Source: Candidatus Pacebacteria bacterium CG10_big_fil_rev_8_21_14_0_10_44_54 (GTDB lineage: Bacteria; Patescibacteriota; Microgenomatia; UBA1400; PJMF01). From it: a stretch of DNA of 64,000 nt. A program made the position numbers and the translations under genes. Below the pieces are notes generated by a model, which had not been told where the DNA came from, ran no database searches, and worked only from the letters and a program-made list of their open reading frames with translations. Within the stretch, counting starts at the first letter, position 1, and each line of letters starts with the position of its first letter. The stretch covers positions 1,214 to 65,213 of the forward strand of contig PFDI01000006.1 of NCBI GenBank assembly GCA_002772695.1, written 5' to 3'. Below, piece by piece: positions 3,912-37,933 of this stretch.

Positions 3912-3937
3912 AACTGCAAGCTAGTATACTAAACTCA

Positions 3938-4333: not shown

Positions 4334-4354
4334 TATGATAGACTACTGCCTGGT

Positions 4355-4699: not shown

Positions 4700-4732
4700 T
4701 TTTCACTTATACTGGATACTAATAAAAAAACT

Positions 4733-6160: not shown

Positions 6161-6958
6161 ATGATTATTGACACACACTGCCATTATAATCTTGAACCGC
6201 TTTTTTCATCATGGCAAACACACTGGAATAAGGCACAAACCGCGGGTGTATTGGCGACCATAATTGTTGGCACAAATCTCGAATCTAGCAACATAGCTTA
6301 CAAGCTTGCCAAAGATAACAAAGCTTTTTTTGCAACTATAGGCCTACATCCAAATCACTTTCAAACCATGAAGCAGCTCGAAGAAATAGCCAAACTAGAA
6401 CCGCTAATTGCAGACACTAGCGTGGTAGCAATCGGCGAAATTGGTCTTGACTTCTTTCGACTCACTGACTCGCCTAGCGATCAACAAATTAAAGAATTGC
6501 AAAAACAAGGCTTCCGCCTACAACTCGAGCTTGCCGCAAGATATAACCTTCCTGTCTGCCTACACGTACGTGATAAACAAGCCGAAGCATACTTTGCTGT
6601 TTTAGAAATCATAAAATCTGTCGAGCGAAACCAGCTGCCATTTATTTTGCACTGCATCTCTGGACCAACTGAATATATAGCAGAAGCTCTAACGCTCGGT
6701 GCGTATCTAGGCGTTGCGGCAAATAGCACCTATCCAAATAACCATGCAATTCGAAGCAGTCTTGCAAAGTCACCAAACAACCGAATTTTACTAGAAACAG
6801 ATGCGCCGTACTTGCCACCACAACCATATCGCGGTCAAGTTTGCGAGCCATGGATGATTACTGAAACTGCCAAAGCACTATTTTCTCAAAAAAAAATTTC
6901 TGCTAACCAGATACTAAACAACACGAAGGCAGCTTTTTTAGATAAAATAACCATATGA
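6161..6958 (+). CDS. tatD: TatD-family metal-dependent DNase/hydrolase
   Basis: MIIDTHCHYNLEP start, IGEIGLDF, LHVRD and LETDAPYL motifs of the TatD family. Confidence 0.9.
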   Translation: MIIDTHCHYNLEPLFSSWQTHWNKAQTAGVLATIIVGTNLESSNIAYKLAKDNKAFFATIGLHPNHFQTMKQLEEIAKLEPLIADTSVVAIGEIGLDFFRLTDSPSDQQIKELQKQGFRLQLELAARYNLPVCLHVRDKQAEAYFAVLEIIKSVERNQLPFILHCISGPTEYIAEALTLGAYLGVAANSTYPNNHAIRSSLAKSPNNRILLETDAPYLPPQPYRGQVCEPWMITETAKALFSQKKISANQILNNTKAAFLDKITI

Positions 6959-8466
6959 ATATTGGAGAAAAAATAGCACGCTACGTGACTAGACACCCGG
7001 TAAAAACACAGCGAGGACTAGAAATTTTGCCAGGATTTGTCTCGTGGTCACTTATTCTCTTTCCAGTCTGGGGGTCATTTGTCGTACCTGAGGTAGTTGC
7101 ATACTACGTTATCACGTTTAGTGTGTACTGGCTGTATCGCTCAATTACTATGGCAATTTTTTCAGTTTTGGCACACCTAAAGGTGCGAGCAGCTAGTAAG
7201 TTTGATTGGCTAGACAATCTCAAGCAACAACACCCAAAAACCTGGAGCACGATTCATCACTGCATCATTATACCCACCTATAAGGAGCCGCTTGAAACCC
7301 TGGTGCGTACCTTGGCCGCGCTACAAGCCCAAACATTTCCAAAAGAAAACCTACATATTGTTCTATCTTTTGAGGAGCGCGAAGGTGCTGCTGCAAGAAA
7401 AAAAGCCGCGGAACTTTCACAAAGATTTCACAAAACATTTGGCTCACTTCTCACCACATATCACCCCGACATTGCAGATGAAATAAAGGGCAAGTCTTCC
7501 AATACTGCTTGGGGGGCGAGGCAAGCAAAGAAATTGATCATCGATAAAAAAAAGATCTCACTAAACAATACTACAATCACAAGTGAGGACGCAGATGCTT
7601 TATTTCACCAATCATACTTCACCGCACTTACCCATGACTTCTTGACTCGAGAAGATCGCTACAACTGTATCTGGCAAGGTTCGATCGTATTTTATAACAA
7701 TATTTGGAGTGTTCCCGCTCCAATCCGCGTGCTCGCCTCACTTTTTTCTGTGATTCAAATGCATCTACTGATGCGGTCAGATCGATTGATTAATTTCTCT
7801 ACCTACTCGACTTCTTTTCGGCATATAGTTGATATCGATTTTTGGGATACCGACGTCATACCCGAAGACTATCGTCTCTTCTTTAAATCCTACTTTGCCA
7901 AGAAAGGTAAGTTTGAGGTTCACCCAATCTTTTTACCAATCTACTCTGACGCACCAGAATCACCTACACGCTGGCAAACGTACAAAAATCAGTACGAACA
8001 ACTCAAACGCTGGGCTTGGGGTGTCAGCGATGACGCCTATATTATCAAGCAGTACCTCACAACTCCAAACGTTCCATTTTGGGATAAATCTATTCGTGTT
8101 CTTAAAACAATAGAGGATCATTTTCTTTGGCCAGTCAATTGGTTTGCTATTACAGTATCCGCGTTCTTTCCCCCACTTCTTAATGAGGAGTTTAATAGAA
8201 CCGTAATTGGTAAAACACTTCCACAAGTTACCTCTGCCCTCCTGACCGCCTCACTCATCTCAATGTTCGCAGTCTTTATTATTGACGCAATAAATCGCCC
8301 ACCAAGACCCAAAAAGAGAAGATTTTTGTCAATTATCTTTCAGCCACTCGAGTTTTTGCTCTTACCCATCATTGGTTTTTTCTTTTCTGCCCTGCCTGGC
8401 ATTGATGCACACACCAGACTGATGCTTGGAAAATATTTAGAGTATAAGGTGACAGAAAAAGTTTAA
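6955..8466 (+). CDS. membrane-embedded family-2 glycosyltransferase (GT-A fold) with N- and C-terminal TM segments
   Basis: CIIIPTYKEPLETLVRTLAALQAQTFP is a GT2 nucleotide-sugar binding region. A DAD (DxD) motif is present. Flanking hydrophobic helices suggest a synthase-like membrane GT. Its ATG overlaps the tatD stop. Confidence 0.7.
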   Translation: MNIGEKIARYVTRHPVKTQRGLEILPGFVSWSLILFPVWGSFVVPEVVAYYVITFSVYWLYRSITMAIFSVLAHLKVRAASKFDWLDNLKQQHPKTWSTIHHCIIIPTYKEPLETLVRTLAALQAQTFPKENLHIVLSFEEREGAAARKKAAELSQRFHKTFGSLLTTYHPDIADEIKGKSSNTAWGARQAKKLIIDKKKISLNNTTITSEDADALFHQSYFTALTHDFLTREDRYNCIWQGSIVFYNNIWSVPAPIRVLASLFSVIQMHLLMRSDRLINFSTYSTSFRHIVDIDFWDTDVIPEDYRLFFKSYFAKKGKFEVHPIFLPIYSDAPESPTRWQTYKNQYEQLKRWAWGVSDDAYIIKQYLTTPNVPFWDKSIRVLKTIEDHFLWPVNWFAITVSAFFPPLLNEEFNRTVIGKTLPQVTSALLTASLISMFAVFIIDAINRPPRPKKRRFLSIIFQPLEFLLLPIIGFFFSALPGIDAHTRLMLGKYLEYKVTEKV

Positions 8467-10050
8467 ATGACTATACTGAGTGCACAAATGAAATTACTCT
8501 CAGAAATTCGCGAGCGCTTGCGTGAGCCAAAAAGCATCTTGTTTCTATTGCTCCTACTTCTTACCTTACTAAGAGTTCCTAATTTCTCAGAACCGTACTG
8601 GTATGGTGATGAGGGAATCTACCTTACAATTGGCAACGCCTTGCGTGAAGGTGGTACGCTCTACACCACTATTGTTGATCATAAAACGCCACTCATTTAC
8701 TACCTCGCTATGATTGTTGATAACCAACTACAGTTTCGTGTGCTGCTGTATGGCATGATGCTGCTCTCAACCGCTGCTTTCTTCTCGCTTTGTCAAACAT
8801 TGTTTTCTCGACTCAAACCTGCTGCATTTGCTACCCTACTCTTTGTTGTCTTTACTTCTCTGCCCTGGTTTGAAGGGCATATCCCCAACGGAGAACTATT
8901 TGTCATTTCATTTGTACTGTATGGAGCTTGGCTCTTTGTCAAAACACCTGTGGCACAGGCCTTCTTTTTACGAAAGACTGTCAAAACACAAAAAAACTTT
9001 CTGCTGTTTGCGGCTGGAGTCAGCTTTGGTCTTGCGCTGCTAACAAAAGTACCTGCCTTATTTGATATCATCGCCTTTGGCGCAGTTTTTGTTTTCTTGA
9101 TTTGGAGGGAGCATTTCCAACTTCTCACTACTCGACTAAAGGAAGCTTTTGTCTTTGTAGCAGGCTGCCTTATACCGCTTGTGCTCTCAATTGTATATTT
9201 TTATGCAATAGGCTCAGGCAGTGACTATCTTGATTTTGGCTTGCTCTATAACTTCAAGTATGCAGGATCATGGCAACTTGCATTTGCTAGTCCTGTTGTG
9301 CTTTTTCTCTTTAGTTTACCAGGAAAAACACTTGTTCTCGGCAGCATACTACTACTCATACTTGGTCTGAATAAAAAACTTTCAGCGGCCAGCCAGTTTT
9401 CACTCGCTTGGTTTTGGCTCTCATTATTTGCTAGCCTTCTTTCTAATCGACCATATCCGCATTATTTCTTGCAGGCAATTCCCCCCGCTGCAATTCTAGT
9501 AGTACTACTGATTATGCAAACAAGAAAAATTTCTTCAGCCTCCAATGCTATCAAGCTTACTTTGCTTGGTGGAAGCCTGAGTACGTTGCTTGCCGTGCTT
9601 GTTTTGCTGCATGTTGGACTTTATAGCACTGTCTCTTACTACACAAATTGGCTCCGTTACATGAGCAAGCAAACAAGCAGACAAGAGTACTATCAATCAT
9701 TTGACAAGCTAATGAGTGACAACTATGCGGCTGCAAAACTTATTATCACCACACAAGACAAACCAAGTCTGTTTATCTGGGGCACTAATCCCATGCTATA
9801 TGCGCTCACCAAAGCCGTGCCTCCTACTCGCTTTACAGTTTCATTTCATGTTGCTGATTTGGATGTATACAGTGAAACTATGTCCGATGTCTATTCCGCT
9901 CAGCCTGAATTCATTGTCGTAATGAACAACGAGTCGAGAAACCTACCTGGCCTCAATGCAATGCTTTTCGAAGCGTATACACTCAATGCACAGTACCAAC
10001 ACTTTACACTTTGGAAACGGTTATCGAACGCATCAAGCCTGCTATACTAG
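8467..10050 (+). CDS. GT-C family glycosyltransferase (ArnT/PMT_2-like; uses a polyprenyl-phosphate-sugar donor)
   Basis: 527 aa with more than 10 TM helices. The first-loop motif EPYWYGDEGIYLTIGNAL corresponds to the conserved DE/acidic motif of ArnT/PMT-type GT-C enzymes. Confidence 0.7.
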   Translation: MTILSAQMKLLSEIRERLREPKSILFLLLLLLTLLRVPNFSEPYWYGDEGIYLTIGNALREGGTLYTTIVDHKTPLIYYLAMIVDNQLQFRVLLYGMMLLSTAAFFSLCQTLFSRLKPAAFATLLFVVFTSLPWFEGHIPNGELFVISFVLYGAWLFVKTPVAQAFFLRKTVKTQKNFLLFAAGVSFGLALLTKVPALFDIIAFGAVFVFLIWREHFQLLTTRLKEAFVFVAGCLIPLVLSIVYFYAIGSGSDYLDFGLLYNFKYAGSWQLAFASPVVLFLFSLPGKTLVLGSILLLILGLNKKLSAASQFSLAWFWLSLFASLLSNRPYPHYFLQAIPPAAILVVLLIMQTRKISSASNAIKLTLLGGSLSTLLAVLVLLHVGLYSTVSYYTNWLRYMSKQTSRQEYYQSFDKLMSDNYAAAKLIITTQDKPSLFIWGTNPMLYALTKAVPPTRFTVSFHVADLDVYSETMSDVYSAQPEFIVVMNNESRNLPGLNAMLFEAYTLNAQYQHFTLWKRLSNASSLLY

Positions 10051-10394: not shown

Positions 10395-11456
10395 ATGCTC
10401 GCATTTTTTCTTAGTTTTTTGTTTGCTTTTCTTCTAGCACCAGTTGTAATTCGGCTCTATAAAAGACAAGGTTGGCTCGATGATCCTGCGCACAATACCC
10501 ATGTGAAAAAAACTCATACAACAGCAGTGCCACGCGGAGGTGGTTTGGTTATTTTTTTTGCCGTGCTAGCTTGTAGTCTACTTTTCTTACAGTTTGATCA
10601 ATACTTACTCGCTATCCTGACTGGAGCTCTCCTGCTCACTATAATCGGCTTCTTGGATGATATACTCGACCTTCATCCCTTTCCTCGTTTAGCGATAAAC
10701 GGCCTCGCAGCCTTAATCGTAGTTGGTTCTGGTATTGGTATAGCCTATATCAGCAATCCTTTTAGCTCTGGCGTACTCATGCTTGATCAACCGAGACTAA
10801 CGCTCTCATTCTTGGGTGAAACAAGAAGTATTTGGGTTTTGGCAGATCTCTTTGCTGTTTTTTTTATCATTTGGAATAGCAATATCGTTAATTGGTCAAA
10901 AGGTGTCGATGGACAATTGCCGGCTTTTTCAATGGTAGCACTCGTGTTTGTTGGTCTGTTGTCTCTTCGATTTTTTGATGATCCAACTTCGTTCAACACT
11001 GCCCAGCTTGCTTTCATTGTTGCCGGAGCATTTGCAGGACTACTGCCGTGGAATTGGTTTCCCCAAAAAATTATGCCGGGGTACGGTGCCGGCTCTCTAG
11101 CTGGATTTTTCTTAGGAGTACTGGCTATTCTCTCTGGAGCAAAATTAGCAACGACACTTATGGTACTTGCTATTCCAACAGCTGATGCTGTGTTTACCAT
11201 CGTTCGCAGACTACATGCAGGAAAATCACCATTCTGGGGCGACAGAGGACATCTACATCATAAATTATTTGATACCTTCGGTTGGAGCAGACAAAAAATA
11301 GCAATATTTTATGGCATCTCGAGTGTAGCGCTTGGCTTCCTCTCGCTGTATTTGAATACTGTGGGAAAATTGCTTACAATAGCAATTACCATGAGCCTCG
11401 TGTTTGGTCTCTTATCTTGGATAAAGATCAAAAAAAGTACTCAGAAAAAAATATGA
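10395..11456 (+). CDS. polyprenyl-phosphate sugar-1-phosphate transferase of the WecA/TagO/MraY (GT4-PNPT) family, WecA-like
   Basis: Motifs GWLDDPAHNTHVKKTHTTAVPRGGG (WecA-type PRxGG), IGFLDDILDL (DDxxD) and 10-11 TM helices. Confidence 0.8.
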   Translation: MLAFFLSFLFAFLLAPVVIRLYKRQGWLDDPAHNTHVKKTHTTAVPRGGGLVIFFAVLACSLLFLQFDQYLLAILTGALLLTIIGFLDDILDLHPFPRLAINGLAALIVVGSGIGIAYISNPFSSGVLMLDQPRLTLSFLGETRSIWVLADLFAVFFIIWNSNIVNWSKGVDGQLPAFSMVALVFVGLLSLRFFDDPTSFNTAQLAFIVAGAFAGLLPWNWFPQKIMPGYGAGSLAGFFLGVLAILSGAKLATTLMVLAIPTADAVFTIVRRLHAGKSPFWGDRGHLHHKLFDTFGWSRQKIAIFYGISSVALGFLSLYLNTVGKLLTIAITMSLVFGLLSWIKIKKSTQKKI

Positions 11457-12421
11457 CTGCGTCGCTCCCCAAAACTCTTTTTCTGTTGTTAAAAACAGCC
11501 CGTCCTCGACAATGGGTAAAAAATCTCTCGTTATTCGCAGCTTTACTCTTTTCTGGTTTCTTGTTTTATAACCCTGTAGATGCTTTGCCGTACTTTTGGA
11601 CTGTAGCTCTGGCAACACTCACTTTTACGTTGGTTACTTCTGCTATTTACATAGCCAATGACCTCGTTGACAAAAAAGCTGATGCCCAACATCCATTTAA
11701 GCGAAAACGACCCATAGCGTCGGGAGAGCTTTCAACCGAAGTGGCAAAACTGGCTGTCTTCTCTTTACTTATTCTGGCGGGGTTTTTTTCACTTTATTTT
11801 TCACTTTTTTTCAAACTGCTGGTACTGCTGTATATTCTGCTACAAATTGGATACTCAAAAATATTTAAACATGTTCCAATTCTTGATGTTGCTTCAATTG
11901 CACTTGGGTTTCTAATTCGAATTTATGCGGGCTCTGTCGTGGTCAACCTACACATGAGTGTTTGGTTTTTGCTCACAGTTATCTCTGCTTCACTCTTTCT
12001 TGCGGTAGGGAAAAGACAAAGTGAGAGAACCCTACTAATGGGAAATTCTTCTGAATCAATTGGAAGTACTAGAAAAATCCTCAAACGATATAGCGAGCGC
12101 TTGCTGGATCAATACACTGCAATGTTTGCCACAGCAACTTGGCTGACATACGCTATCTTTACTTTTCAAAATGAAGTCATTGTTCCACAATCTGAATTTG
12201 CAACAATCTTTCGGCTGTTACCAAAAACACTTCACACCCAAAAATGGCTTATGATCTCTGTACCCTTTGTCATCTTTGGTGTCATGAGGTATTTGCAGCT
12301 TGTGTATGAAAAAAACCAAGGAGAATCTCCAGAGCGAGTGCTCTTTAATGACAAGCCCCTACTCATCACCGTTTTTCTTTTTGGCCTCAGCGTTATTTTT
12401 GCCTTGTACTTACTTGCATAA
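11453..12421 (+). CDS. UbiA-family prenyl-phosphate phosphoribosyltransferase (decaprenyl-phosphate 5-phosphoribosyltransferase/DPPR synthase-like)
   Basis: Start chosen at MTASLPK (ATGA overlap with the upstream stop at 11454-11456). The TARPRQWVKNL motif is the DPPR-synthase (Rv3806c-like) hallmark. YIANDLVDKKADAQHPFKRKRPIASG is the UbiA Asp-rich region. About 8 TM helices. Confidence 0.7.
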   Translation: MTASLPKTLFLLLKTARPRQWVKNLSLFAALLFSGFLFYNPVDALPYFWTVALATLTFTLVTSAIYIANDLVDKKADAQHPFKRKRPIASGELSTEVAKLAVFSLLILAGFFSLYFSLFFKLLVLLYILLQIGYSKIFKHVPILDVASIALGFLIRIYAGSVVVNLHMSVWFLLTVISASLFLAVGKRQSERTLLMGNSSESIGSTRKILKRYSERLLDQYTAMFATATWLTYAIFTFQNEVIVPQSEFATIFRLLPKTLHTQKWLMISVPFVIFGVMRYLQLVYEKNQGESPERVLFNDKPLLITVFLFGLSVIFALYLLA

Positions 12422-12424
12422 TTT

Positions 12425-13675
12425 ATGCAGCGATTTGTAGAGCGCTACTACAATCCCTTGTTGCTCGTACTCGTAGCAATCGCATTTTTCTCTCGCCTCT
12501 ATCGAATTCACATTCCAGAGCGGTATATGTTTGATGAGGTATATCACGCTGTGACAGCTCAACTCATTGCAAAAAATGATCCAAGAGCTTATGAATGGAC
12601 TGCCCAGTCTGATCAACCAAATACTGCAATTGATTGGCTGCATCCACCGGGCGCTAAATTATTTCAGGCTGGAAGCGTGTTGTTATTTGGCGAAACTAGT
12701 TTCGCTTGGCGAATTAGTTCTGTTGTATTTGGAACGCTCGTGGTTCTTACAGTGGGTTGGTTAACCCAAGCTTTGTTCGCAAATAAAGCACTCTCGCTGT
12801 TCGCCACACTCTTTGCAGTTTGTGACGGTTTACTACTTGTACAATCTCGTATCGCGATGAACGACATTCATGTCACGTTTTTTATATTGCAAACACTGCT
12901 ATGGTATTGGCTCTACCGAGAAAAAAAAGTTGTAAAGTATTTTATAGTCGCAATTGTAATGGCTGGTTGTGCTGTAGCAAGCAAGTGGTCGGGATTATTT
13001 GTATTTGGAGTGATCACAATTGTAGAACTTGCTCAGTGGCAGAAAGATCAAACTATACATCTGCTACAAAAAATTTCTCTATTACTACTACTTCCATTAG
13101 GAATATATCTGGCAAGCTACTCGCAAATGTGGCTACAGGGAAAATCACTTACCCACTTTATTCAACTTCACAAACAAATTTGGGCCTACCAAACAACTTT
13201 GACTGCGACTCACCCATACCAATCTACTCCTCTCCAGTGGTTCTTGAATATCAGACCTGTTTGGGTTTCTGTTGAGTACGGCAGCGAAACTAGGGCAGAC
13301 ATTTATGCTTTTGGTAATCCAGCATTATTTTTTTGGGGCATGTTTGCCATACTGTTTAGTGCTGTTTCAGTAGTACAGCTTCGAAAAAAAATCTCACCAG
13401 CGTTTATATTTTTATTCTTAGCTTATATTATAGTCTGGACCCCCTGGTTTCTCTCTCCTCGCGTTATGTTCTTTTATCACTACACACCAGCCGTCCCTTT
13501 ACTCTGCATCTTACTCGCCTACTGGCTGGTGAAAATAAACAAAAAATCTCTCACGATAACAATTTCCATCAGCATCATTCTTGCCAGTATTGTTTGGTTT
13601 CCTCATTGGACACAACTGCCTGTTTCAAACAAATTTGCTGATGATATTTACTTTTATTTTACAACGTGGAAATAA
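12425..13675 (+). CDS. GT-C family glycosyltransferase (PMT/GT39-like dolichyl/polyprenyl-phosphate-sugar:protein or glycan transferase)
   Basis: 416 aa, multi-TM. The first-loop MFDEVYHA motif (DE) matches the PMT family. Confidence 0.7.
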   Translation: MQRFVERYYNPLLLVLVAIAFFSRLYRIHIPERYMFDEVYHAVTAQLIAKNDPRAYEWTAQSDQPNTAIDWLHPPGAKLFQAGSVLLFGETSFAWRISSVVFGTLVVLTVGWLTQALFANKALSLFATLFAVCDGLLLVQSRIAMNDIHVTFFILQTLLWYWLYREKKVVKYFIVAIVMAGCAVASKWSGLFVFGVITIVELAQWQKDQTIHLLQKISLLLLLPLGIYLASYSQMWLQGKSLTHFIQLHKQIWAYQTTLTATHPYQSTPLQWFLNIRPVWVSVEYGSETRADIYAFGNPALFFWGMFAILFSAVSVVQLRKKISPAFIFLFLAYIIVWTPWFLSPRVMFFYHYTPAVPLLCILLAYWLVKINKKSLTITISISIILASIVWFPHWTQLPVSNKFADDIYFYFTTWK

Positions 13676-20379: not shown

Positions 20380-20618
20380 TTCTGAGGTTACGGGCAATCC
20401 AATCGTTTTCAGCTCGTTTCTAGCGTACTGTTTGACCATGAGTTAGTTGGATGTATAGATCTAGCATTTCATGAAATCAGCAAAAAACTTGCAGTAGTTG
20501 CAGACAATTGGGCCTCTGCAGCAAAATTGTTGAACCAAGTTATGGAAGACAGAAAAGTCTAATTCTACAGTGTAAATCAAAACTTTGAACGTATCTAAAA
20601 CCTAATTGCCTGCTAGTG

Positions 20619-20692
20619 TCGGGGTGACTGGACTCGAACCAGCGATCTCGCGACCCCCAGCCGCGCATTCTAGCCATCTGAACTACACCCCG
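20619..20692 (-). tRNA. tRNA-Pro (anticodon GGG)
   Basis: The reverse complement CGGGGTGTAGTTCAGATGGCTAGAATGCGCGGCTGGGGGTCGCGAGATCGCTGGTTCGAGTCCAGTCACCCCGA folds as a cloverleaf: a 7-bp acceptor stem (CGGGGTG/CACCCCG), an anticodon stem CGCGG/TCGCG with loop CTGGGGG (GGG anticodon after U33), and a T-arm GCTGG-TTCGAGT-CCAGT. CCA is not encoded. Confidence 0.8.
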
Positions 20693-23853: not shown

Positions 23854-25257
23854 ATGCGCAAGGCATACTGGTACGTAAGCGCTTACATTCGAAAACGTGG
23901 GTTGATGGTGGCTCTTTCACTTGTGATCGCTCTTAGTTTTTTCTCTTTTGTTGTCCCTATTATTGCAAGCAGACTAGAAAAGCGCGAGCAGTTTTATATT
24001 GGCATTATTGGTCAGTACACGATTTATGACTTGCCAGATATTGTTGCTGATCAACTCAGCGTAGGACTAACCACCATTACCGAAGATGGTGAAGTCATGC
24101 CGGTATTAGCGCAACGTTGGGCAGTTGAACAAAGTGGCAAAACATATCGCTTCGTGCTCAAAGATAATCTTGTCTGGAGTGATGGTGAAAAAATCAAGGC
24201 AGATGAAATCAATTTTGATCTAAAAGACACAAGCATTTCTGCAACAGAAAATGATCTCATTTTTCAGCTCCCTGCTGAGTTTTCACCATTTCCAAGCTTG
24301 GTTGCAAAACCACTTATAAAAATAGTCGACCAAAATCTAGCCTTCTCTCGCAAGCGACCACTGCCAGTAGGCATTGGTGCTCACCACGTGAGCGATTATA
24401 AAACTAAAAATAACCGACTCTCAGAATTAGTAGTAGATAGTGAAAACAAGCGATATGTCTATAGGTTCTTTCAGACTGAAGAGGATGCACTGATTGCATT
24501 TAAACAAGGAAAAATTGATCTTTTACTAGATCTTGTCAAACACCATGAGATTTTTGAGTGGCCAACGGTCGTAACGTCACCAAAACTAAATACAAATCAA
24601 TACGTAGCAATTTTTTTTAATCTGCAAGACCCACTGATGTCAAAAAATATTCGTCAGGCACTCTCGTACGCTACGAGTAAGCCAACAGACGCAACTCGAG
24701 CTATCGGCCCGATCAGCTCGAATTCTTGGGCATATCTTCCTGGTGCCAAAAATTATGAGAAGGACTGGGAGCGTGGACTCGAGCGATTGCTCGACGAACC
24801 GCCGCAACTCCCCCTTGTATTTACCCTCACAACTACTCCAACTTTTTCGAGTAAAGGTGATGAAATAAAAAAGGAGTGGGAAGAATTTGGCAAGTATGCT
24901 GCAGAAACATGTGCTTCTGCCAAGGAGGTTGAGGATAAAAACCTCTGTGAAAACATGCGCATTGCAGTCACACTCAAAGTTGTAAACTTTCCTGACACCA
25001 ATGATTTTCAACTACTACTCATAGGCCAAGAATCTACACCTGATCCTGATCAATACCATCTTTGGCACTCTGATCAAAGCACGAACTTCACCAATTATAA
25101 AAACACCCGCATTGACAACCTGCTCGAAAAAGGCAGACAAACCTTTGACCAAGTAGAGCGCAAAAAAATCTACCAAGAGTTTCAACAATTTATCCTCGAA
25201 GACCCACCCGCAATATTTTTGGAATACTTGCAAACGTACGATATCAGCAGAAAATAA
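23854..25257 (+). CDS. extracellular solute-binding protein, family 5 (peptide/nickel-type SBP), membrane-anchored
   Basis: N-terminal TM/signal anchor. Length and pattern are consistent with SBP_bac_5. No cognate permease or ATPase genes lie adjacent. Confidence 0.65.
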   Translation: MRKAYWYVSAYIRKRGLMVALSLVIALSFFSFVVPIIASRLEKREQFYIGIIGQYTIYDLPDIVADQLSVGLTTITEDGEVMPVLAQRWAVEQSGKTYRFVLKDNLVWSDGEKIKADEINFDLKDTSISATENDLIFQLPAEFSPFPSLVAKPLIKIVDQNLAFSRKRPLPVGIGAHHVSDYKTKNNRLSELVVDSENKRYVYRFFQTEEDALIAFKQGKIDLLLDLVKHHEIFEWPTVVTSPKLNTNQYVAIFFNLQDPLMSKNIRQALSYATSKPTDATRAIGPISSNSWAYLPGAKNYEKDWERGLERLLDEPPQLPLVFTLTTTPTFSSKGDEIKKEWEEFGKYAAETCASAKEVEDKNLCENMRIAVTLKVVNFPDTNDFQLLLIGQESTPDPDQYHLWHSDQSTNFTNYKNTRIDNLLEKGRQTFDQVERKKIYQEFQQFILEDPPAIFLEYLQTYDISRK

Positions 25258-27507
25258 TCACAAACGCCTTCGCCATTTGCGAACTAGCTCAAATACGCGC
25301 ACTACCCAAAACCGTGGCGAGAGCGGAATATCCTGTGCTTCAAGGTATTGCACCTCTCTCCCACCAAAACCACGCTTAAATAATGATACTCCTGCAAATC
25401 GATGTCCTTTCACACCAGGTGGAGCAACGCCCCAAAGGTTATAACTTTGACAACCGTGTTGTTTTGCTTCGATGATGACGCGCCACTGAACTGCATAGGA
25501 ACCTGGTAATTTAGTGTTAGCGTCAGTTGAAACACCATAGTGATAGACTGCTTGCTGGTGATACATCAGTACAAATGCAGAGGCAAGTAGTTGCTCACCT
25601 TGATAAGCAGAGACTAAAATTGCCTGATTATTTTCTGCAAATATGCGAAATTGTTCAACTAAAAAATCATAGCTAAATGGCACAAAATCGTGTCTGGCTG
25701 CCACCAACCGCTGTTCCTCATAAAACTGTTTGATTGCGCTCGGATCACGAGAAACAGTGGTTCTAATTCCCAATTTTTCTGCTTTTTTGATTGCCGAACG
25801 GGTGTTCTTGCGCATTTGTGCCAAGATTTGCTCATTATCTTTGGCAAGATCGATCTCTATGGTTCTATCTGCCGTCACATGCATAGCAGCAGGTACTGCG
25901 CCTAGTTGAGCTGCTTGGGCTCGAGCACCAGGGTTCTCGAGCACCTGCGGTCTAAATCTAAGAAAAGAACAGCCGTGCTGTTTTGCAATTGTCCGCAAAT
26001 GAGAAAAAAAAGCCGAAGCAACCAATATGCGATCCCAATCTAACAATGGTCCGCCCGGTAAGCTGCAGTAAGTACCGCGTCGCGCTCGCTCAAAAATCAT
26101 AAGTGCTACACCAATCAAATTACTTTTCTCATACAAGCCAATTCGAGCAATCTCTTTGCCAAGTTTTCGCTGAAACTCTCCCCAGTGCCAGGATTGCAGG
26201 AAATTCGCCTCTACTCGATTTGCCAACCAATCTTCCCAAATTTCTTTTTTGGTTATTTCTCTCACGACGTAGTCCTGTTGTATATCCAATTGCCCCAAGA
26301 TCACAGTCGCCAAACGAGCCGCAACTTGTGGTGTAATCTGGCGATGTGTGGGAAGTGTAAAGACAGTACTAGCAAGTGCCTCAGCTGCCAAACAACTCCC
26401 TACTTGATACGTTGTATTCCACTTGGTGCTGCCTGCATCTACAGCAGACCGATACCAGCGATCAGATAAGTAGAAATTATGTTTTTTTAACTCTGCTGTC
26501 AAAGTGGCTGGATCTCTAGCTATGATGGCAAAGCGCAGCGGCGAAAGCTTGTCTGTTGTTGCTGGCGAGACGGCGTACTGAAAAAGAAAACGCTCATAAA
26601 TGGCCGCAATTTTTGCCCGATGCTCTAAAGCCTGTGACAATGAATGCAACTGCTCAAAGACCAATCGAGCCTGTCCCACAGAAAGCTTCTCAAAAAGTGG
26701 TGTGGTGCGAAGCACTGGAGAGGTAATGATGCCAAAAGATACAGCGACTCGCTGCAATACTTTGCCCAAACCAAGTGAGAATGTAGCTCGTATTATCACT
26801 GTCAAAAGCGGATAGAATGCCTGGCGCCAGTCACTACGTGAGCGCAGTAAGTGCCGACTGGGCTCTTCTACGAGTAGGTTTTTGCGAAATAAACAGCAGC
26901 CACCTGCAACGACATCAATCACTTTATCTCTACCAAACGAAGTGACAACAATATCTCCAAAACTACCCAGTAATTTTTTATCCGATGTATGACTGCCAAA
27001 AGATTGAGCTAGGTCCTCTATGAGCAATAAGTTATTTTTGTTACACCAATCACGGATTGCGACAATAGCTGCCGGATAACCAAGTAGGTGTTGGACTAAA
27101 ACTACTCTTGCATCTGGATTGGCAGCAAATGCTTTCTGCAGGGTTTCGACATTCAAATTGATTGAGTGTTCAGCGAGATCGACAAAAACCGGTTGTAGTT
27201 TTGCCCCCAAAATTGCCTCCTCTATCGCAGCACATGTAAAGGCTTGTGTCAGCACTTTTGCATTCTGTGGCAGTGACAAAGCTTGGAGTGAAAACTGAAT
27301 TGCATCGCGACCAGTGGAAAAAAAGTATGGATCAGTAAACTCAGGAAAGTACTCAAGCAATTTAGCACTCAAGTCTGTTTGTGTTTGCCTCAAATTTGGA
27401 GGAAATATATACCACCACAATGCCTGACAGGCAAATTTCAGCGAGTAATTTGACCCAAGGCTACCAAAAATAGGAACAGTCTGATTCATAAATGCTCTGT
27501 TAGCCAT
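25258..27507 (-). CDS. bifunctional fusion of an N-terminal DegT/DnrJ/EryC1/StrS-family PLP sugar aminotransferase and a C-terminal FemAB-family (FemX-like, GNAT-fold) aminoacyl-tRNA-dependent transferase
   Basis: The N-terminal half has the DegT pattern (VLTQAFTCAAIEEAILGAKLQPVFVD...LLLIEDLAQSFGS...GSFGDIVVTSFGRDKVID with a putative PLP-binding Lys). The C-terminal ~335 aa starts with FLQSWHWGEFQRKLG and continues with YHYGVS...NLWGV, which is FemAB/FemX-like. It is one uninterrupted 749-aa ORF. Confidence 0.75.
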   Translation of the reverse strand: MANRAFMNQTVPIFGSLGSNYSLKFACQALWWYIFPPNLRQTQTDLSAKLLEYFPEFTDPYFFSTGRDAIQFSLQALSLPQNAKVLTQAFTCAAIEEAILGAKLQPVFVDLAEHSINLNVETLQKAFAANPDARVVLVQHLLGYPAAIVAIRDWCNKNNLLLIEDLAQSFGSHTSDKKLLGSFGDIVVTSFGRDKVIDVVAGGCCLFRKNLLVEEPSRHLLRSRSDWRQAFYPLLTVIIRATFSLGLGKVLQRVAVSFGIITSPVLRTTPLFEKLSVGQARLVFEQLHSLSQALEHRAKIAAIYERFLFQYAVSPATTDKLSPLRFAIIARDPATLTAELKKHNFYLSDRWYRSAVDAGSTKWNTTYQVGSCLAAEALASTVFTLPTHRQITPQVAARLATVILGQLDIQQDYVVREITKKEIWEDWLANRVEANFLQSWHWGEFQRKLGKEIARIGLYEKSNLIGVALMIFERARRGTYCSLPGGPLLDWDRILVASAFFSHLRTIAKQHGCSFLRFRPQVLENPGARAQAAQLGAVPAAMHVTADRTIEIDLAKDNEQILAQMRKNTRSAIKKAEKLGIRTTVSRDPSAIKQFYEEQRLVAARHDFVPFSYDFLVEQFRIFAENNQAILVSAYQGEQLLASAFVLMYHQQAVYHYGVSTDANTKLPGSYAVQWRVIIEAKQHGCQSYNLWGVAPPGVKGHRFAGVSLFKRGFGGREVQYLEAQDIPLSPRFWVVRVFELVRKWRRRL

Positions 27508-28961
27508 TGCGGCATTCTGCCTTCTAGCAATAACACTGTGTTTTTATCAAGTAACTGTATTTTTTTGCGCACATCGGCTTGCGTAGAAACTAGCTTGTCA
27601 GAAAACACTTGCTGAAACACTGTCTTGCCTGCTTCTCCAAGATACCAAACTTCGCCCACAACCACTGCAGCTTGCTGCGCTAGTTGAGAGTGAATTGCGA
27701 CAGACTCTCTGCCGAGATCAACAATGCCTGTTGTGATTAATATTTTGCGTGACTCAGATTGTTGTGCTAATAACCGCAAAGCGGCCGAGAATCCATCGGG
27801 ATTGCTGGTACCAAAATCATCTAGTATTGTCGCTCCAGACTTCGCAGTTTTGCGCTGGATCCATTTGTCACCAGGGACAAATGATTCTAGTCTAGCCACA
27901 ATTTGTTTGTCTGAAAGTTTCAAGTATTGTGCTGCTGCTATTACAGCCTTAATACTGTCTTGGTAGTGATCACCGACTATCTTAGATTGCAGCTTAGGGG
28001 ATGAATTTCGCCATGTCTCGACTATCTCAAGCGCACAGATGTTCTTGGCTGCAGCGACAATTTGCATTGCAGACTGATTGGCACAAAACACAGCAGCACC
28101 TTGTGGCAATGACGCAAGCAGTTCTGCCTTGGCTTCGGCTATAAGCTGCTTCGAACCAAATAATTCAAGATGTTGTTTGCCAAGCCCGGTGAGAATGGCC
28201 ATGTCTGGAGGAGCTACTGAAGCTAATCGAGCAATTTCACCTACTCTGTATGCGGCATACTCTAGCACAAGAATTTTTGAGCAACCCAAGTGCTTGTATA
28301 CATATCGCGCTACTCCCAAAGCAGTGTTGATCGATCCCGGAGTGGTGCAAACCTTGCCCCGCTGTTGCAGTACGTGACTCAACAGCTGTTTAGTTGTCGT
28401 CTTGCCATAACTACCAGTTATTCCAATGATGAATGGTTGTTGCTTTTTTATACGCTGGCGCACCAGAAACAAATAGTAGGTCGTCACAAGTGATACCAGT
28501 CCTCCTGTCAAGGCTGTGAATAATAACAACACTACAGGCGCAAAAATATATACACCGATTGCAAGTACAATCAGGCGAATTGTTGCAATAGCTGGTACGG
28601 CTACAACCCAATAAGCTAGTGAAAAAACAAGTAGAAAAAGCACGACAACACTACCCAAAAGCAGTATTCCCACACGCAGTGTTCTTTTCGGTCGTTTAAA
28701 TGTTTTCAAACGAAAAATTGTCAGCGATGGCAACACGTGTAGTAATATTTGGCGACCTGTTAGGGAGCGTATATGGGCTACTAATCTATCAAGTCGATAC
28801 TCTTTTTGCTGCAACAAGCCACTCCACCAGATCAAGCCAGCAAACGTATCAAGTAGACACCCAAGCAGAAAAAGAACAATAATAAAATTACCCATTGTGT
28901 GCCTCAATAATGTACCTCCCAACTTGTTTTGGATGCGTAAACGGCACGCCGTGTCGAGCAT
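27486..28961 (-). CDS. Mur-ligase-family protein, MurF-like (central and C-terminal domains), with an N-terminal polytopic membrane domain replacing the usual UDP-MurNAc-peptide-binding domain
   Basis: The first ~170 aa form 4-5 hydrophobic helices. They are followed by Mur ligase P-loop IIGITGSYGKTTTKQLL, AILTGLGKQHLELFGS and the C-terminal ATILDDFGTSNPDGFSAAL (MurF-like DDSYNANP motif). The 3' end overlaps the fusion gene by 22 nt. Confidence 0.75.
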   Translation of the reverse strand: MLDTACRLRIQNKLGGTLLRHTMGNFIIVLFLLGCLLDTFAGLIWWSGLLQQKEYRLDRLVAHIRSLTGRQILLHVLPSLTIFRLKTFKRPKRTLRVGILLLGSVVVLFLLVFSLAYWVVAVPAIATIRLIVLAIGVYIFAPVVLLLFTALTGGLVSLVTTYYLFLVRQRIKKQQPFIIGITGSYGKTTTKQLLSHVLQQRGKVCTTPGSINTALGVARYVYKHLGCSKILVLEYAAYRVGEIARLASVAPPDMAILTGLGKQHLELFGSKQLIAEAKAELLASLPQGAAVFCANQSAMQIVAAAKNICALEIVETWRNSSPKLQSKIVGDHYQDSIKAVIAAAQYLKLSDKQIVARLESFVPGDKWIQRKTAKSGATILDDFGTSNPDGFSAALRLLAQQSESRKILITTGIVDLGRESVAIHSQLAQQAAVVVGEVWYLGEAGKTVFQQVFSDKLVSTQADVRKKIQLLDKNTVLLLEGRMPQWLTEHL

Positions 28962-29634
28962 TGGGAATCAGTCGCAATCTTGCGGTTGGAATGCCTTGTT
29001 GTAAACGAGCGACAAACTCTAGAGGTGTAGTCTCGTCATTTGCTCCCCAAATAATAGTTGTGTCAGCAGTAATACTGGGCAAAAGCACGTCTACCTCATG
29101 CTCTAACACGCGCCGCATTGACTCTCTCATAATTGGATTGGCCTTGAGATAGTCTTGCTCTCCTGCCAATCGATAAATAACTCGACGAAGCAGATTGGAA
29201 GTAGTGAGTTTTTTGCCAAATTTTGCCAGGTAGTAAAAAAAATTTCGCTTAAGCCAAGATGTCAGGCTCTGTGAGCGCATACCAGCACTCGCAATAAGTA
29301 CTAACTTTTCTACCTGACTTGGGAAACGGGCGGCGTATGTAACTGCCAAATGCCCTCCAAACGAGTGACCAACCAACGTTATTTTTTTCTTTCCAACAAA
29401 TTGTCTTGCCAGCCATGCAACATATTCATCTACTCCCCAGGATTCAGTGAGCGGAAACTCAAATCCGGGCAGTCTGAGAACACTCCCTTTGATACCTACA
29501 TTTTGTAGCTGTTGTTTGATTGGCTGCCACTTTGCGCTTGGACTCGAATCTCTTGACCAACCGTGAAGAATGATGACCTCCGATGTTGTGTTCTCCATAA
29601 GCTCATTATACGCACCTCTGGCGAAAAAACGCAC
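28888..29634 (-). CDS. alpha/beta-fold hydrolase
   Basis: HGWSRDSS (HG oxyanion), nucleophile elbow LVGHSFGG, and a C-terminal His (NARHGVPFTHP). Its 3' end overlaps the MurF-like gene. Confidence 0.75.
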   Translation of the reverse strand: MRFFARGAYNELMENTTSEVIILHGWSRDSSPSAKWQPIKQQLQNVGIKGSVLRLPGFEFPLTESWGVDEYVAWLARQFVGKKKITLVGHSFGGHLAVTYAARFPSQVEKLVLIASAGMRSQSLTSWLKRNFFYYLAKFGKKLTTSNLLRRVIYRLAGEQDYLKANPIMRESMRRVLEHEVDVLLPSITADTTIIWGANDETTPLEFVARLQQGIPTARLRLIPNARHGVPFTHPKQVGRYIIEAHNG

Positions 29635-29669: not shown

Positions 29670-30344
29670 ATGCGTACACTTACTTTGCTCACCCTCGCAA
29701 GCTTCGCTCTCATCATTTCTGCCTGCACACCGCCAACCACCACTTCACCTCTCAAACTCAACTCAGCCGCAAGCCAAACAGCTACAAATACTACTAGTAC
29801 TAATCAAGGTCAGCCACCACTTGCAGATCAAAAGGACACTATGTCGCCAAATGGAAAATCAGAAAAAACCCTGGCAGATTTCGGTGAAATCGCCGGTAAA
29901 ACAGTTACGCTCACGACTACCAAAGGGCCCGTGGTAATCGAGCTCTATCGAGAAGAAGCGCCGCTCACTACAGCAAATTTTCTCTCGCTCGTCAATACTG
30001 GCTTCTATGATGGCATCGTTTTCCACCGAGTGATTGCAGATTTTATGGCACAAGTGGGCGATCCGTTGACCAAAGATCCAAACCAACAAGCAATGTGGGG
30101 TACTGGGGGACCTGGTTACATCATCGCTGACGAATTTGCACCAGGACTCTCGCACAATAGTCCCGGTGTTGTTTCTATGGCAAACTCTGGACCAAACACT
30201 GGTGGTAGTCAGTTTTTCATTACCTACGGACCAACGGAGTGGCTCGATGGCAAACACGCCATTTTTGGTAAAGTCACTCAAGGAATGGACGTCGTTGAAC
30301 AAATTACCGTTGGTGATTTGATTGTGTCGATTCAGGTGGAGTAA
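29670..30344 (+). CDS. cyclophilin-type peptidyl-prolyl cis-trans isomerase, predicted lipoprotein
   Basis: Signal peptide with lipobox LIISAC. Cyclophilin core FHRVIADFMAQVGDP...SMANSGPNTGGSQFFI. Confidence 0.85.
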   Translation: MRTLTLLTLASFALIISACTPPTTTSPLKLNSAASQTATNTTSTNQGQPPLADQKDTMSPNGKSEKTLADFGEIAGKTVTLTTTKGPVVIELYREEAPLTTANFLSLVNTGFYDGIVFHRVIADFMAQVGDPLTKDPNQQAMWGTGGPGYIIADEFAPGLSHNSPGVVSMANSGPNTGGSQFFITYGPTEWLDGKHAIFGKVTQGMDVVEQITVGDLIVSIQVE

Positions 30345-31938
30345 GGCATTGCAAGCAAGTACAAAAAATAAAATCCTTCGATTTTTTTTGTACAGTATTT
30401 GTTTGCTCTCCCTGTTTCTTTCGTTCGGCATCCTAGCTACAGCCAACGCCTATCATTTGTTGATAACAGGCAATTACAAACAATCACATAAAAGTGCGGC
30501 GTTTGCACTGCCAGTTGCAAGACTGACAAACAAGACTTGGGTGAGTGGATTGCAAACACTCATTGCCACAGGCAATACGCTGCTTGAACTCGAAAGGCTA
30601 CAGCAGGATGTTAATACTGGCGTTCCTCCAAATATCTCCGGACTCGTTCAAAATTTGCGTCAGGCAGAAATCAACTTAGAACATGCTTCGCAAAATATCA
30701 AAAACTCCAGCCTGCTCTCCCTCATTTTTTCTGACAAACGTGAGCGGATCGAAGAAATTACCAACACACTCAAACACATGCTGCCACTAGCAGAATACTT
30801 CATACAAGATGAAAAAAATCTACTGGTACTACTACAAAACTCGGATGAACTGCGCGCGACGGGCGGCTTCATGGGCTCATATGCAGTACTCCGTTTTGAC
30901 TCAGGTGTACTGCAAGAAATTGTGGTGGAAGATATCTATGACGCTGATGGACAGGTACTAGAATACTTCGAGCCACCCAAAGGAGTTGGTGAGTTCTTGA
31001 GCGGCGGCAATGGCTGGCGACTACCTGATGCCAACTGGCACCCTGACTTCGCCCAGAGCTCACGAGACACGCTGCGGTTTTTTGCCTTGGCAGGTCACGG
31101 CAGTATTGATGGAGTCATTGCGATCAATTTGCCGGTCGTGCAGTCACTTCTTGCTATCACTGGTCCTATCCTGCTACCCGATCAAGATCTTGTTTTAAGT
31201 GCTGAAAATATTAGCCAAGCACTAAGAACTGACAGAGAGTCATTTTTTGCTGGTAGCACTGCCAAAAAAAATACTATGATTCAAGCAATTACCCAACTAA
31301 AACTTTCTATTGCTGCCCTAGAAGGTCGCGGAAAAATGCAAGTACTTGAGCAACTCAGACAACAAACCAAAAAAGGAAATGTTCTGGTATATTTTCCAAA
31401 CCCAGAGCTCGAAAAGCATGTCGCGCAACTAGGTATTTCGGGTAGTCTTGGACCGAGTAATATAGATGCACACAGTCTCTATTATTATCCAGTAGAATCA
31501 AATGTTGGCATCAATAAAGTCAATGCCTTTGTCATGCGTGAGTACGTTATGACAACCGCAGATACCATCACTGAACTTGGCATCACTCTACACAATACCA
31601 GTAGCCAAGATGGCTACGTCAATTATCAGCGGCTTCTGTTTGCCCCAGGACAACGTGTAGAAGAAATAGTCGTGAACGGTGAACAAATTTTACAATTTGA
31701 TCGTGAGCAAGTCGCGAGTAGTACTGGCCAGCACTACGACCAAATTGGATTTCTCGTCACGACCCTGCCGAACAACACGACGCGCGTTGCTATTTCTCTT
31801 TCGCATGATTCCGGATTCACTCGTGTAATATTTCAAAAACAACCTGGTACGAATGATACAACCCTCACTAGCATCACTCCGGATACTGCTACAACTCACC
31901 AGTTGAACCAATCCTTTCTCGAGTACGTGATAGAATGA
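30322..31938 (+). CDS. large membrane-anchored extracytoplasmic protein, DUF4012-like
   Basis: One N-terminal TM helix followed by about 490 aa of extracytoplasmic domain. The motif [22 protein letters not shown] recalls, from memory, the TGGFxGSY signature of DUF4012 proteins found near cell-wall genes. Confidence 0.5.
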
Positions 31939-36745: not shown

Positions 36746-37933
36746 GTGAGAATCACTTTGTGCACACTGCTCATCGCGTTTACCTTGCGGTTTGGACTAG
36801 ATACAGCGCATGCCCAAAACATTGTTGTTTCCGAACTTTACCCAGCTCCCAATGCAGGTGAAAATGAGTGGATAGAACTCTACAATGCAGCGTCAAGCGC
36901 TGCAGATCTAACCGATTGGACTGTGTTTGACACACTCAGTACTCCCAGCTTGCTGCACCAATTTACAGATTTTATTTTGCAGCCATACGAAATTTTTATT
37001 CTCAATTTATCAGGCAGCACGCTCAATAACACTGGTGACACTGTTGTCCTAAGTGATCCGGCTGCTACCTATTCAGCTTCACTCTCTTACTCGAGTAGCA
37101 CCAAAGGTCTTTCGTGGCACCAAGATTTGCTGACAGGAGAAGTGTTCGAGTCATCACCTAGCGCAGGTATTGTCGCTACTGCAAGTGCAGTGCAACCTAG
37201 TCCAATACCCATCGCTACTCAAGCAGCTGTCTCGGCCACTCCTGCTGCTGTAGTAATAAAACCAAACGTGCAACTTTCTGAAATCATGGCATGTCCTTAC
37301 TCTGGACAACCAGAGTGGATAGAGCTGCGCAACTTCGGTGAAACTATTTCGCTTGAAAACTGGCTAATTACAGATAGCACCGGAAACACTCGGGAACTCG
37401 CTGGTTTGATAGCAAATGACAGCCGAGTGGTTTTTTCTTGGAGCAACAGTATGCTTAATAACTCAGGAGACTCGCTCCTCATCACGACCAATCTTGGCAC
37501 CGTAGTTGCTGAAGCAAGCTACTCATATTGCAAAAGTGGCTACAGCCTAACTCTGAACAACGACAACTGGGTGCCTTCGCATCCGACGCCAAACGAGGCA
37601 AATAAGCTGTTTGAAGAAAGTGATGGGGAAGATGTAATGGAGGTGAACAAAATTGAAGCCACAAGTGTGCAGTCTACTGCCGCTTCTGCAGATCAAGTCA
37701 AAGATTCTGGACAAGTCCTTGGCACTACAATAACTGCACAGCCAGCCTATCCGTATTCACTAGCAAAAGAAATTATCACAATACAAGCATTGGTGCAGCA
37801 AGATAAACTGACAAAAAATACGACACAGAAATCGCTACCAGCCAAATCAAATGAAACATCACTCGGTGGTATACTAGGAGGCCTGCTTGTAACAATAAGT
37901 AGTCTCTATGCCCGCAAAGATCTCTTCACCTAG
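36746..37933 (+). CDS. secreted, C-terminally membrane-anchored protein with two lamin-tail (LTD) domains
   Basis: Signal peptide. Two repeats, VVSELYPAPNAGENEWIELYN... and QLSEIMACPYSGQPEWIELRN..., match the LTD pattern. Ser/Thr-rich linkers and a C-terminal TM helix are present. Confidence 0.6.
   Translation: MRITLCTLLIAFTLRFGLDTAHAQNIVVSELYPAPNAGENEWIELYNAASSAADLTDWTVFDTLSTPSLLHQFTDFILQPYEIFILNLSGSTLNNTGDTVVLSDPAATYSASLSYSSSTKGLSWHQDLLTGEVFESSPSAGIVATASAVQPSPIPIATQAAVSATPAAVVIKPNVQLSEIMACPYSGQPEWIELRNFGETISLENWLITDSTGNTRELAGLIANDSRVVFSWSNSMLNNSGDSLLITTNLGTVVAEASYSYCKSGYSLTLNNDNWVPSHPTPNEANKLFEESDGEDVMEVNKIEATSVQSTAASADQVKDSGQVLGTTITAQPAYPYSLAKEIITIQALVQQDKLTKNTTQKSLPAKSNETSLGGILGGLLVTISSLYARKDLFT

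Follow-up and report, generated by a model that had tools for sequence, protein, structure and literature searches.

A DegT-like domain fused to a predicted FemX-type transferase in a conserved, probably peptidoglycan-related operon of Patescibacteria

Patescibacteria (candidate phyla radiation, CPR) make up a large part of bacterial diversity, and their cell-wall chemistry has hardly been worked out. A stretch of 64,000 nucleotides from a Candidatus Pacebacteria genome (contig PFDI01000006.1; the whole stretch is referred to as the window) raises the question of why a DegT-like domain of the pyridoxal 5'-phosphate (PLP)-dependent type and a FemX-type aminoacyl transferase domain are encoded as one polypeptide. 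The open reading frame (ORF) concerned lies on the minus strand at 25258..27507 and comprises 749 codons from the first ATG. A preliminary description of this DNA, made from the sequence alone, had reported it as a continuous ORF with no stop between a DegT and a FemX domain; the ORF indeed contains no internal stop, and both domain assignments were borne out by Pfam. DegT_DnrJ_EryC1 (PF01041) matched with an E value of 1.6e-32 (113.5 bits against a cutoff of 19.8; best stretch, residues 64-214), and FemAB (PF02388) matched in three stretches from residue 422 on with an E value of 1.9e-36 (126.2 bits against a cutoff of 24). Acetyltransf_6 (PF13480; E value, 1.3e-13) covered residues 564-692, which correspond to the GNAT half of Fem proteins. 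The N-terminal domain of the DegT/DnrJ/EryC1 fold (residues 1-408; 26284..27507, minus strand) was recognised also by phmmer against the PDB and by Foldseek, and the predicted C-terminal double-GNAT aminoacyl-tRNA transferase domain of the FemX type (residues 409-749; 25258..26283, minus strand) by Foldseek and a family profile. The motifs FLQSW, YHYGVS and NLWGV all lie within the C-terminal half.

Whether the two domains are truly fused can be judged from the relatives of this protein. In a word-indexed search, which covered 5.8 billion proteins, the full-length fusion architecture was shared by 16 clusters at 100% down to 31% identity (65-31% for P0002 to P0016); these were followed by about 100 stand-alone DegT-like relatives of about 415 residues with approximately 35-43% identity. 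When 1.84 billion representatives were scanned exhaustively with HMMER, about 28 full-length fusions of 703-885 residues stood among the best 150 matches. When the cluster representatives from both searches were pooled, 38 fused, 159 DegT-only and 38 FemX-only proteins were obtained, and the alignments of the fused proteins were co-linear over the full length. One database protein (P0001, 743 residues) is 100% identical to the window fusion and is present on two contigs. The probable true start of the window gene is Met7 (ATG, 27489-27487), which yields 743 residues and places the start codon in an ATGA overlap with the stop codon (TGA) of the upstream murF-like gene.

Among 77 related loci, the DegT-like and FemX genes were separate in 69, fused in four and cut by contig ends in four. 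In the split loci, the start of FemX mostly overlaps the DegT stop by 4 nt (ATGA), and the genes are otherwise separated by a gap within about 20 nt; they are therefore likely to be translationally coupled, and one small indel would suffice to fuse them. This proximity is also what speaks for a sequencing or assembly error, that is, a frameshift or a lost stop codon, since an error of 1 nt would join genes that abut so closely. However, the same domain order, DegT at the N-terminus and FemX at the C-terminus, recurs in the 38 independent fused clusters down to about 30% identity; several deep clades are fused throughout; the linkers of other fused lineages are lineage-specific, longer than that of the window protein and different from it; and the identical protein occurs on two contigs. 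An artefact of this kind was thus ruled out, and we consider its probability negligible. In neighbour-joining trees, the fused or split state required at least 9 changes for the DegT domain and at least 16 for the FemX domain. The window gene fell in a Pacebacteria-type clade in which P0001 to P0008 were all fused. It is virtually certain, then, that the window ORF represents a genuine fusion of two operon partners joined end to end, i.e. a Rosetta-stone fusion.

Comparison with the stand-alone proteins placed the domain junction at residues 405-425 (GQLDIQQDYVVREITKKEIWE; 26233..26295, minus strand). The preliminary description had put it at nucleotides 26260-26290 without naming a strand, which is consistent with the minus-strand reading. 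At this point the C-terminus of the stand-alone DegT-like protein abuts the N-terminus of the stand-alone FemX with essentially no linker added: the DegT part, ending in VILGQLD, passes directly into the FemX part, IQQDYVVREITKKEIWEDW, with no extra residues relative to two split loci (L001 and L003). An AlphaFold2 model of the 749-residue chain, built from an 80-sequence alignment, had a mean predicted local distance difference test (pLDDT) value of 94.9 and a predicted template modelling score (pTM) of 0.89, which is high for a two-domain protein and suggests a defined arrangement of the two domains relative to each other.

The genomic setting of the pair was examined in metagenome contigs and 70 species-representative genomes, with phmmer comparison of the window proteins to all ORFs of those loci. 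A uniform gene order on one strand was found in the approximately 70 genomes and the metagenome contigs (Pacebacteria, Woesebacteria, Beckwithbacteria, Saccharibacteria and others), namely an alpha/beta-hydrolase, a MurF-like ligase, the DegT-like protein and FemX, and it persisted in the most divergent lineages examined. Genomically, the DegT-like and FemX genes are tied obligately to one another and to murF. The preliminary description had suggested that amino-sugar formation and aminoacylation are coupled in this protein. The coupling itself is upheld by the adjacency and apparent translational coupling in 69 of the 77 loci and by the repeated fusion; the amino-sugar part had come from the family name only and is taken up below.

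The upstream ligase gene (27486..28961, minus strand; probable start, Met23 at 28895) encodes a protein nearest to MurF, with 173 bits to TIGR01143 and an E value of 2.7e-29 to Thermotoga maritima MurF (3ZL8). Its score is below the TIGR01143 cutoff of 288.6 bits, its alignment begins at model position 68, and domain 1 is lacking. In place of this UDP-binding domain, the window protein has a hydrophobic N-terminus (residues 1-165, more narrowly about 18-162) with some three to four transmembrane segments; a hydrophobic multi-transmembrane region of about 160 residues likewise replaces domain 1 in the ligases of Microgenomates, and the protein of Saccharibacteria begins at the central domain, domain 1 being simply absent. 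Other Mur ligases without domain 1, such as MurT, act on lipid II. By analogy, the ligase of this operon may act on a lipid-linked substrate at the membrane. The operon always opens with the alpha/beta-hydrolase gene (28888..29634, minus strand; probable start, 29598), which encodes a generic carboxylesterase-like protein that is paired with MurF even outside CPR; searches with it returned only generic carboxylesterase and meta-cleavage-hydrolase matches, which give no mechanistic hint. In non-CPR genomes of 3-3.5 Mb, the hydrolase-ligase pair is directly followed by D-Ala-D-Ala ligase (Ddl), which argues for a genuine MurF-type role of the ligase.

In a Saccharimonadia locus (L069), murJ lies directly upstream, and in another CPR lineage (L082) a gene for an FtsQ-like POTRA protein lies directly downstream of FemX. 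Since the ligase is nearest to MurF, the hydrolase-ligase pair stands by Ddl, MurJ and FtsQ-like genes occur at these loci, and the FemX profile is nearest to cell-wall Fem enzymes, the operon probably serves the peptidoglycan pathway, in late precursor synthesis. In five loci of Saccharibacteria (L063, L065, L067, L074 and L076), the DegT-like gene is followed by two tandem FemX paralogues, and a two-residue branch is suggested for these organisms; in L005, a fusion is followed by a second FemX. Tight linkage and occasional fusion of consecutive peptidoglycan-precursor enzymes are known from ddl-murF and division and cell wall (dcw) clusters and from fusions of Mur enzymes such as MurE-MurF, and adjacency to murF is shared with the present case. 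Unlike in MurE-MurF-type fusions, the partners here are predicted to be a PLP enzyme and a tRNA-dependent transferase rather than two Mur ligases, and the MurF lacks domain 1.

Both domains appear to have kept their chemistry. The best PDB match of the N-terminal domain in phmmer was 1o61 (E value, 1.3e-15), and Foldseek gave template modelling (TM) scores of about 0.75 to the sugar aminotransferases ArnB, PglE, PseC, WbpE, perosamine synthase and KabA/NtdA. The putative Schiff-base lysine of the preliminary description, in SFGRDKVID (residues 190-198), is Lys195 (codon 26923..26925, minus strand), which aligned with the catalytic lysine strand of 1o61. Asp165 in the IEDLAQ motif (codon 27013..27015, minus strand), predicted to pair with the pyridine nitrogen of PLP, aligned with IEDAAE of the same structure. 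Lys195 and Asp165 were invariant in alignments of 121 and of 80 family sequences, and this invariance in about 200 divergent sequences argues that PLP chemistry has been retained.

The N-terminal domain has in common with the DegT/DnrJ/EryC1 sugar aminotransferases (PseC, PglE, ArnB, WbpE and perosamine synthase, as well as KabA/NtdA) the fold-type-I architecture, the S-F-x-x-x-K strand bearing the Schiff-base lysine, E-D-x-A-Q and a C-terminal L-P-T-H. It differs from them in having G-R-D-A where G-T-A-A is usual, Arg193-Asp194 before the lysine, an invariant N-terminal SLGSNY motif typical of the DegT-like subfamily, and an insertion of about 35 residues with two helices; nor is a partner keto-sugar enzyme encoded nearby. 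The insertion (residues ~217-274; 26686..26859, minus strand) follows the strand of the PLP lysine and precedes the C-terminal subdomain; in the alignment, residues 217-274 stand opposite only about 23 residues of 4qgr. It contains two hydrophobic or amphipathic helices (227-241 and 247-257 by DSSP of the AlphaFold2 model) and a conserved Tyr232-Pro233; a Kyte-Doolittle scan of the fusion found no membrane spans, and the insertion is therefore not a classical transmembrane segment. Around the cofactor, Arg67, Asp68, Arg193, Asp194 and Asp198 are invariant charged residues specific to the subfamily. None of the NCBIfam equivalogs (PseC, LegC, ArnB, WecE, RfbH, DesI and others) was reached, the best being LegC with 82 bits against a cutoff of 420. 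By these comparisons, the DegT-like domain is a distinct subfamily, essentially confined to Patescibacteria among the sequences collected.

The C-terminal domain resembled Weissella viridescens FemX (FemX_Wv) with Foldseek TM scores of 0.81-0.83 and also matched Staphylococcus aureus FemX and FemA; it is of the short type without a coiled-coil insert. A profile of the CPR FemX family matched S. aureus FemX (6snr) with an E value of 8.7e-41 and the natural-product enzyme Sbb17 with 4e-13. Phe710-Lys711 (codons 25375..25380, minus strand), in the stretch LFKRGFGG (residues 709-716), correspond to the catalytic Phe304-Lys305 of FemX_Wv, of which Lys305 is catalytic (PMC12945691). The pair was invariant in 36 family members (F302/K303 of domain alignment A2) and aligned with the FK of FemA and S. 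aureus FemX, so that conservation of the catalytic residues, which the preliminary description had left to be checked, was found for both domains. The domain thus has in common with FemX_Wv (UDP-N-acetylmuramyl (UDP-MurNAc)-pentapeptide:L-Ala transferase; 1NE9/4II9) the double-GNAT fold and the short format of about 335 residues, and with both FemX_Wv and S. aureus FemX/FmhB (lipid II:Gly; 6SNR) the Phe-Lys pair. Its identity to these two enzymes is only about 16-19%, and, unlike them, it has a PLP enzyme as its fusion partner or obligatory neighbour. The FemX equivalog NF047883 (UDP-MurNAc-pentapeptide-lysine N6-alanyltransferase) was not reached (42.7 bits against a cutoff of 500). As for Lys36, Arg211 and Tyr215, the residues of FemX_Wv that bind UDP-MurNAc-pentapeptide, an equivalent of Tyr215 is conserved in the fusion family, the position of Lys36 aligns beside Arg/Lys residues, and that of Arg211 is a conserved Phe. 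Judged from sequence, both domains have intact catalytic signatures and look catalytically competent; the C-terminal domain is in the Fem family and the N-terminal one in the DegT superfamily, neither being placed in a characterised subfamily.

Based on these results, the function of the fused enzyme may be as described below. The protein would derive from the adjacent, translationally coupled degT-like and femX genes of the conserved operon of Patescibacteria. Its FemX domain would transfer an amino acid from aminoacyl-tRNA to a primary amine of a precursor, either UDP-MurNAc-peptide or lipid II, and thereby start a side branch or an interpeptide bridge, and the PLP domain would transfer an amino group on the same molecule in a coupled step. 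Most plausibly, the PLP domain would turn a carbonyl into the amine that is subsequently acylated by FemX, following the logic of DhpH (see below), and the fusion would keep both steps stoichiometric and pass the intermediate directly on. Amine formation is favoured as the role of the PLP domain because the output of DegT-type enzymes and the input of Fem-type enzymes are both primary amines. We regard the explanation as a whole (fused operon partners, a peptidoglycan precursor, and coupled amine and aminoacyl steps) as evenly balanced between right and wrong, and the supply of the FemX acceptor amine by the PLP domain, which is argued by analogy, as a tentative proposal. Several observations weigh against the scheme. 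The Lys or Orn of a normal stem peptide already provides an amine, and a PLP step is thus not obviously needed; and the comparisons made yielded no substrate. In addition, no characterised subfamily lies close to the DegT-like domain (best NCBIfam score, 82 against 420 bits), the operon holds no conserved enzyme for a keto or aldehyde substrate in the loci examined, and the conserved Phe at the position of Arg211 points to an acceptor recognition unlike that of known cell-wall FemX enzymes.

An alternative, close to the preliminary description, is that the substrate of the DegT domain is a keto nucleotide-sugar, which it aminates, and that FemX aminoacylates the resulting sugar amine; the product would decorate the glycan strand or else a secondary cell-wall glycopolymer, and not the peptide stem. 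The structural neighbours of the N-terminal domain are all sugar or sugar-phosphate aminotransferases, the FemX-like enzyme Orf11/Sbb17 does acylate an amino sugar, and the window encodes envelope-glycan enzymes (GT4, UbiA and PMT; see below). Nevertheless, no keto-sugar dehydratase or oxidoreductase was conserved near the DegT-like gene in about 80 loci, nor was a glycosyltransferase or flippase for such a polymer conserved beside the pair, whose invariant neighbour is murF, and the FemX profile is nearest to the Fem enzymes of lipid II and UDP-MurNAc. In view of these observations, the low equivalog score and the peptidoglycan context, we judge amino-sugar formation unlikely. The DegT-like domain might instead be non-catalytic or bind a nucleotide, for example recognising UDP on behalf of the ligase without domain 1, in which case the fusion would have no chemical meaning. 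The loss of the UDP-binding domain from this MurF fits such a scaffold role, but the invariance of the Schiff-base lysine and the cofactor-binding Asp indicates retained PLP chemistry and makes the idea highly improbable.

Two further alternatives keep both activities and change the order or the product. The PLP domain might act after FemX: it would form an aldimine with the alpha-amine left free on the new branch residue and would then either epimerise this residue from L to D or convert it by transamination to an alpha-keto-acyl cap. A new free alpha-amino group is found on the branch residue only, consecutive steps in either order would be in keeping with tight coupling and fusion, and invariant charged residues peculiar to the family surround the cofactor (listed above). 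On the other hand, no DegT-fold enzyme is known to act on peptide N-termini or as a racemase, and the domain order of the fusion is uninformative, so that we think this sequence of events improbable. Alternatively, the pair might make the building block of MurF, the PLP enzyme producing an amino acid (e.g. D-Ala from pyruvate) and FemX adding a tRNA-borne residue to give a dipeptide that replaces or supplements the products of Alr/Ddl. The pair indeed follows murF directly, at the position that Ddl holds in the related hydrolase-MurF-Ddl loci; in L082 it directly precedes the FtsQ-like gene, and in classical dcw clusters ddl lies directly before ftsQ; and DhpH performs chemistry of this kind. 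Against it, the two FemX paralogues after DegT in Saccharibacteria are better explained by a two-residue bridge, precursor-binding FemX is matched in size and fold by the CPR FemX domain, and CPR genomes are generally reported to encode Ddl. A phmmer search with two Ddl proteins against 1.1 Mb of loci and the window matched only the queries themselves, which is uninformative because the loci are small samples of their genomes. This possibility appears very improbable to us.

The scheme in which the fused enzyme makes and then acylates an amine has a precedent in architecture. DhpH of the dehydrophos pathway of Streptomyces luridus carries an N-terminal PLP domain and, in the same chain, a C-terminal FemX-like domain, as in the window fusion; the likeness is at the level of architecture only. 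The N-terminal domain of DhpH is reportedly PLP-dependent and makes L-Ala(P), supplying the amine. Its C-terminal domain, a FemX-like aminoacyl-tRNA-dependent peptidyl transferase, acylates the amine of L-Ala(P) (PMC12945691). DhpH belongs to a phosphonate pathway of actinomycete secondary metabolism, whereas the window fusion belongs to a core-genome cell-wall operon of CPR with a murF context and no phosphonate cluster. The second FemX-like enzyme that acylates a pathway-supplied amine, Orf11/Sbb17 of streptothricin-type antibiotics, aminoacylates the sugar amine of streptothrisamine from Gly-tRNA, and an amino-sugar acceptor is thus chemically feasible; however, it is a stand-alone natural-product enzyme, which the CPR FemX profile matched far less well than cell-wall Fem enzymes. 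With DhpH as a precedent, a fusion of a PLP domain to a FemX-like domain is as such not categorically new.

The preliminary description had stated that it knew of no described architecture of this kind. No paper on a DegT-FemX pair or fusion was found, and the single paper found on FemAB and DegT has the two families in separate exopolysaccharide (EPS) loci; to that extent the statement holds. It needs to be qualified in view of DhpH and because NCBI and JGI entries for fused proteins already exist, with unspecific annotations of the type 'peptidoglycan bridge formation glycyltransferase FemA/FemB family protein'. As far as sequence comparison can tell, what is new is the lineage-wide, core-genome coupling of predicted PLP chemistry to tRNA-dependent cell-wall branching. 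Weightier than the fusion itself is that FemX and MurF of Patescibacteria have a distinct DegT-like, predicted PLP enzyme as a core partner.

A pair that is always adjacent, always by murF and repeatedly fused is among the strongest purely genomic signals of a common intermediate, and a PLP aminotransferase-like enzyme tied to tRNA-dependent peptidoglycan branching is a combination found in no known wall pathway. One may speculate, with more doubt than confidence, that Patescibacteria (Microgenomates, Saccharibacteria and relatives) use an extra PLP-dependent step of peptidoglycan-precursor synthesis that no studied bacterium employs, in which the DegT-like enzyme is welded to FemX and to a membrane-anchored MurF without domain 1 and makes either the branch amine or, with FemX, a tRNA-derived building block for MurF. 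If so, a textbook pathway would gain a new enzymatic step, the stem-peptide or branch chemistry would be of a kind so far undescribed, an unusual muropeptide would be predicted for CPR bacteria, and a lineage-specific target or marker would be at hand, which is relevant to the cultivable oral Saccharibacteria. The window fusion would be a handy reagent, with both predicted activities in a single polypeptide, at 1:1 stoichiometry and from one construct.

In Microgenomates-type loci, the operon is flanked upstream by genes for a peptidylprolyl isomerase, DUF4012 and peptide chain release factor 2 (RF2), and downstream by those for SBP_bac_5, SecG, RNase Y and RecA. The flanks in the window agree with this arrangement, SecG aside, as its gene was not looked for there. 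The DUF4012 gene (30322-31938, plus strand) adjoins the operon in nearly all Microgenomates loci. The gene for a membrane-anchored SBP_bac_5 protein, of the oligopeptide- or murein-peptide-binding family (23854..25257, plus strand), is conserved and convergently oriented to the operon; its stop codon and that of the fusion are immediately adjacent (25257/25258). No ABC transporter genes adjoin this gene in the window. A scan of the operon for promoters and terminators gave the same counts as expected from shuffled sequence. A tRNA and Rfam scan found no dedicated tRNA or riboswitch near the operon, its sole match being a tRNA-Pro(GGG) at 20618-20692 on the minus strand. The longest RecA ORF (TTG start, 20606) contains this tRNA at its 5' end, and the true RecA start must therefore be farther downstream.

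Aminoacyl-tRNA synthetase genes were located a few kb from the DegT-FemX pair in four divergent lineages, namely those for LeuRS (L005), SerRS and a class II enzyme (L083), ArgRS (L080) and GluRS (L082). Because the enzyme differs each time and small genomes are rich in translation genes, this proximity is probably a coincidence. The most divergent fusion (P0016) is adjoined in L080 by a gene for a polysaccharide deacetylase with SH3 domains, resembling peptidoglycan deacetylases (3882-5330, minus strand). Farther downstream in the window, a secreted protein with two lamin-tail domains is encoded at 36746-37933 (plus strand). Three genes in a row at 10395-13675 (plus strand) encode a GT4 (MraY/WecA-like) phosphosugar transferase, a UbiA-family prenyltransferase and a PMT-type GT-C glycosyltransferase, a set reminiscent of the synthesis of lipid-linked sugar donors for envelope glycosylation. 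Three large and very hydrophobic ORFs of 417-527 codons (589-1842, minus strand; 6955-8466 and 8467-10050, plus strand), with no Pfam match at an E value of 1e-4 or below, may encode GT-C-like membrane glycosyltransferases.

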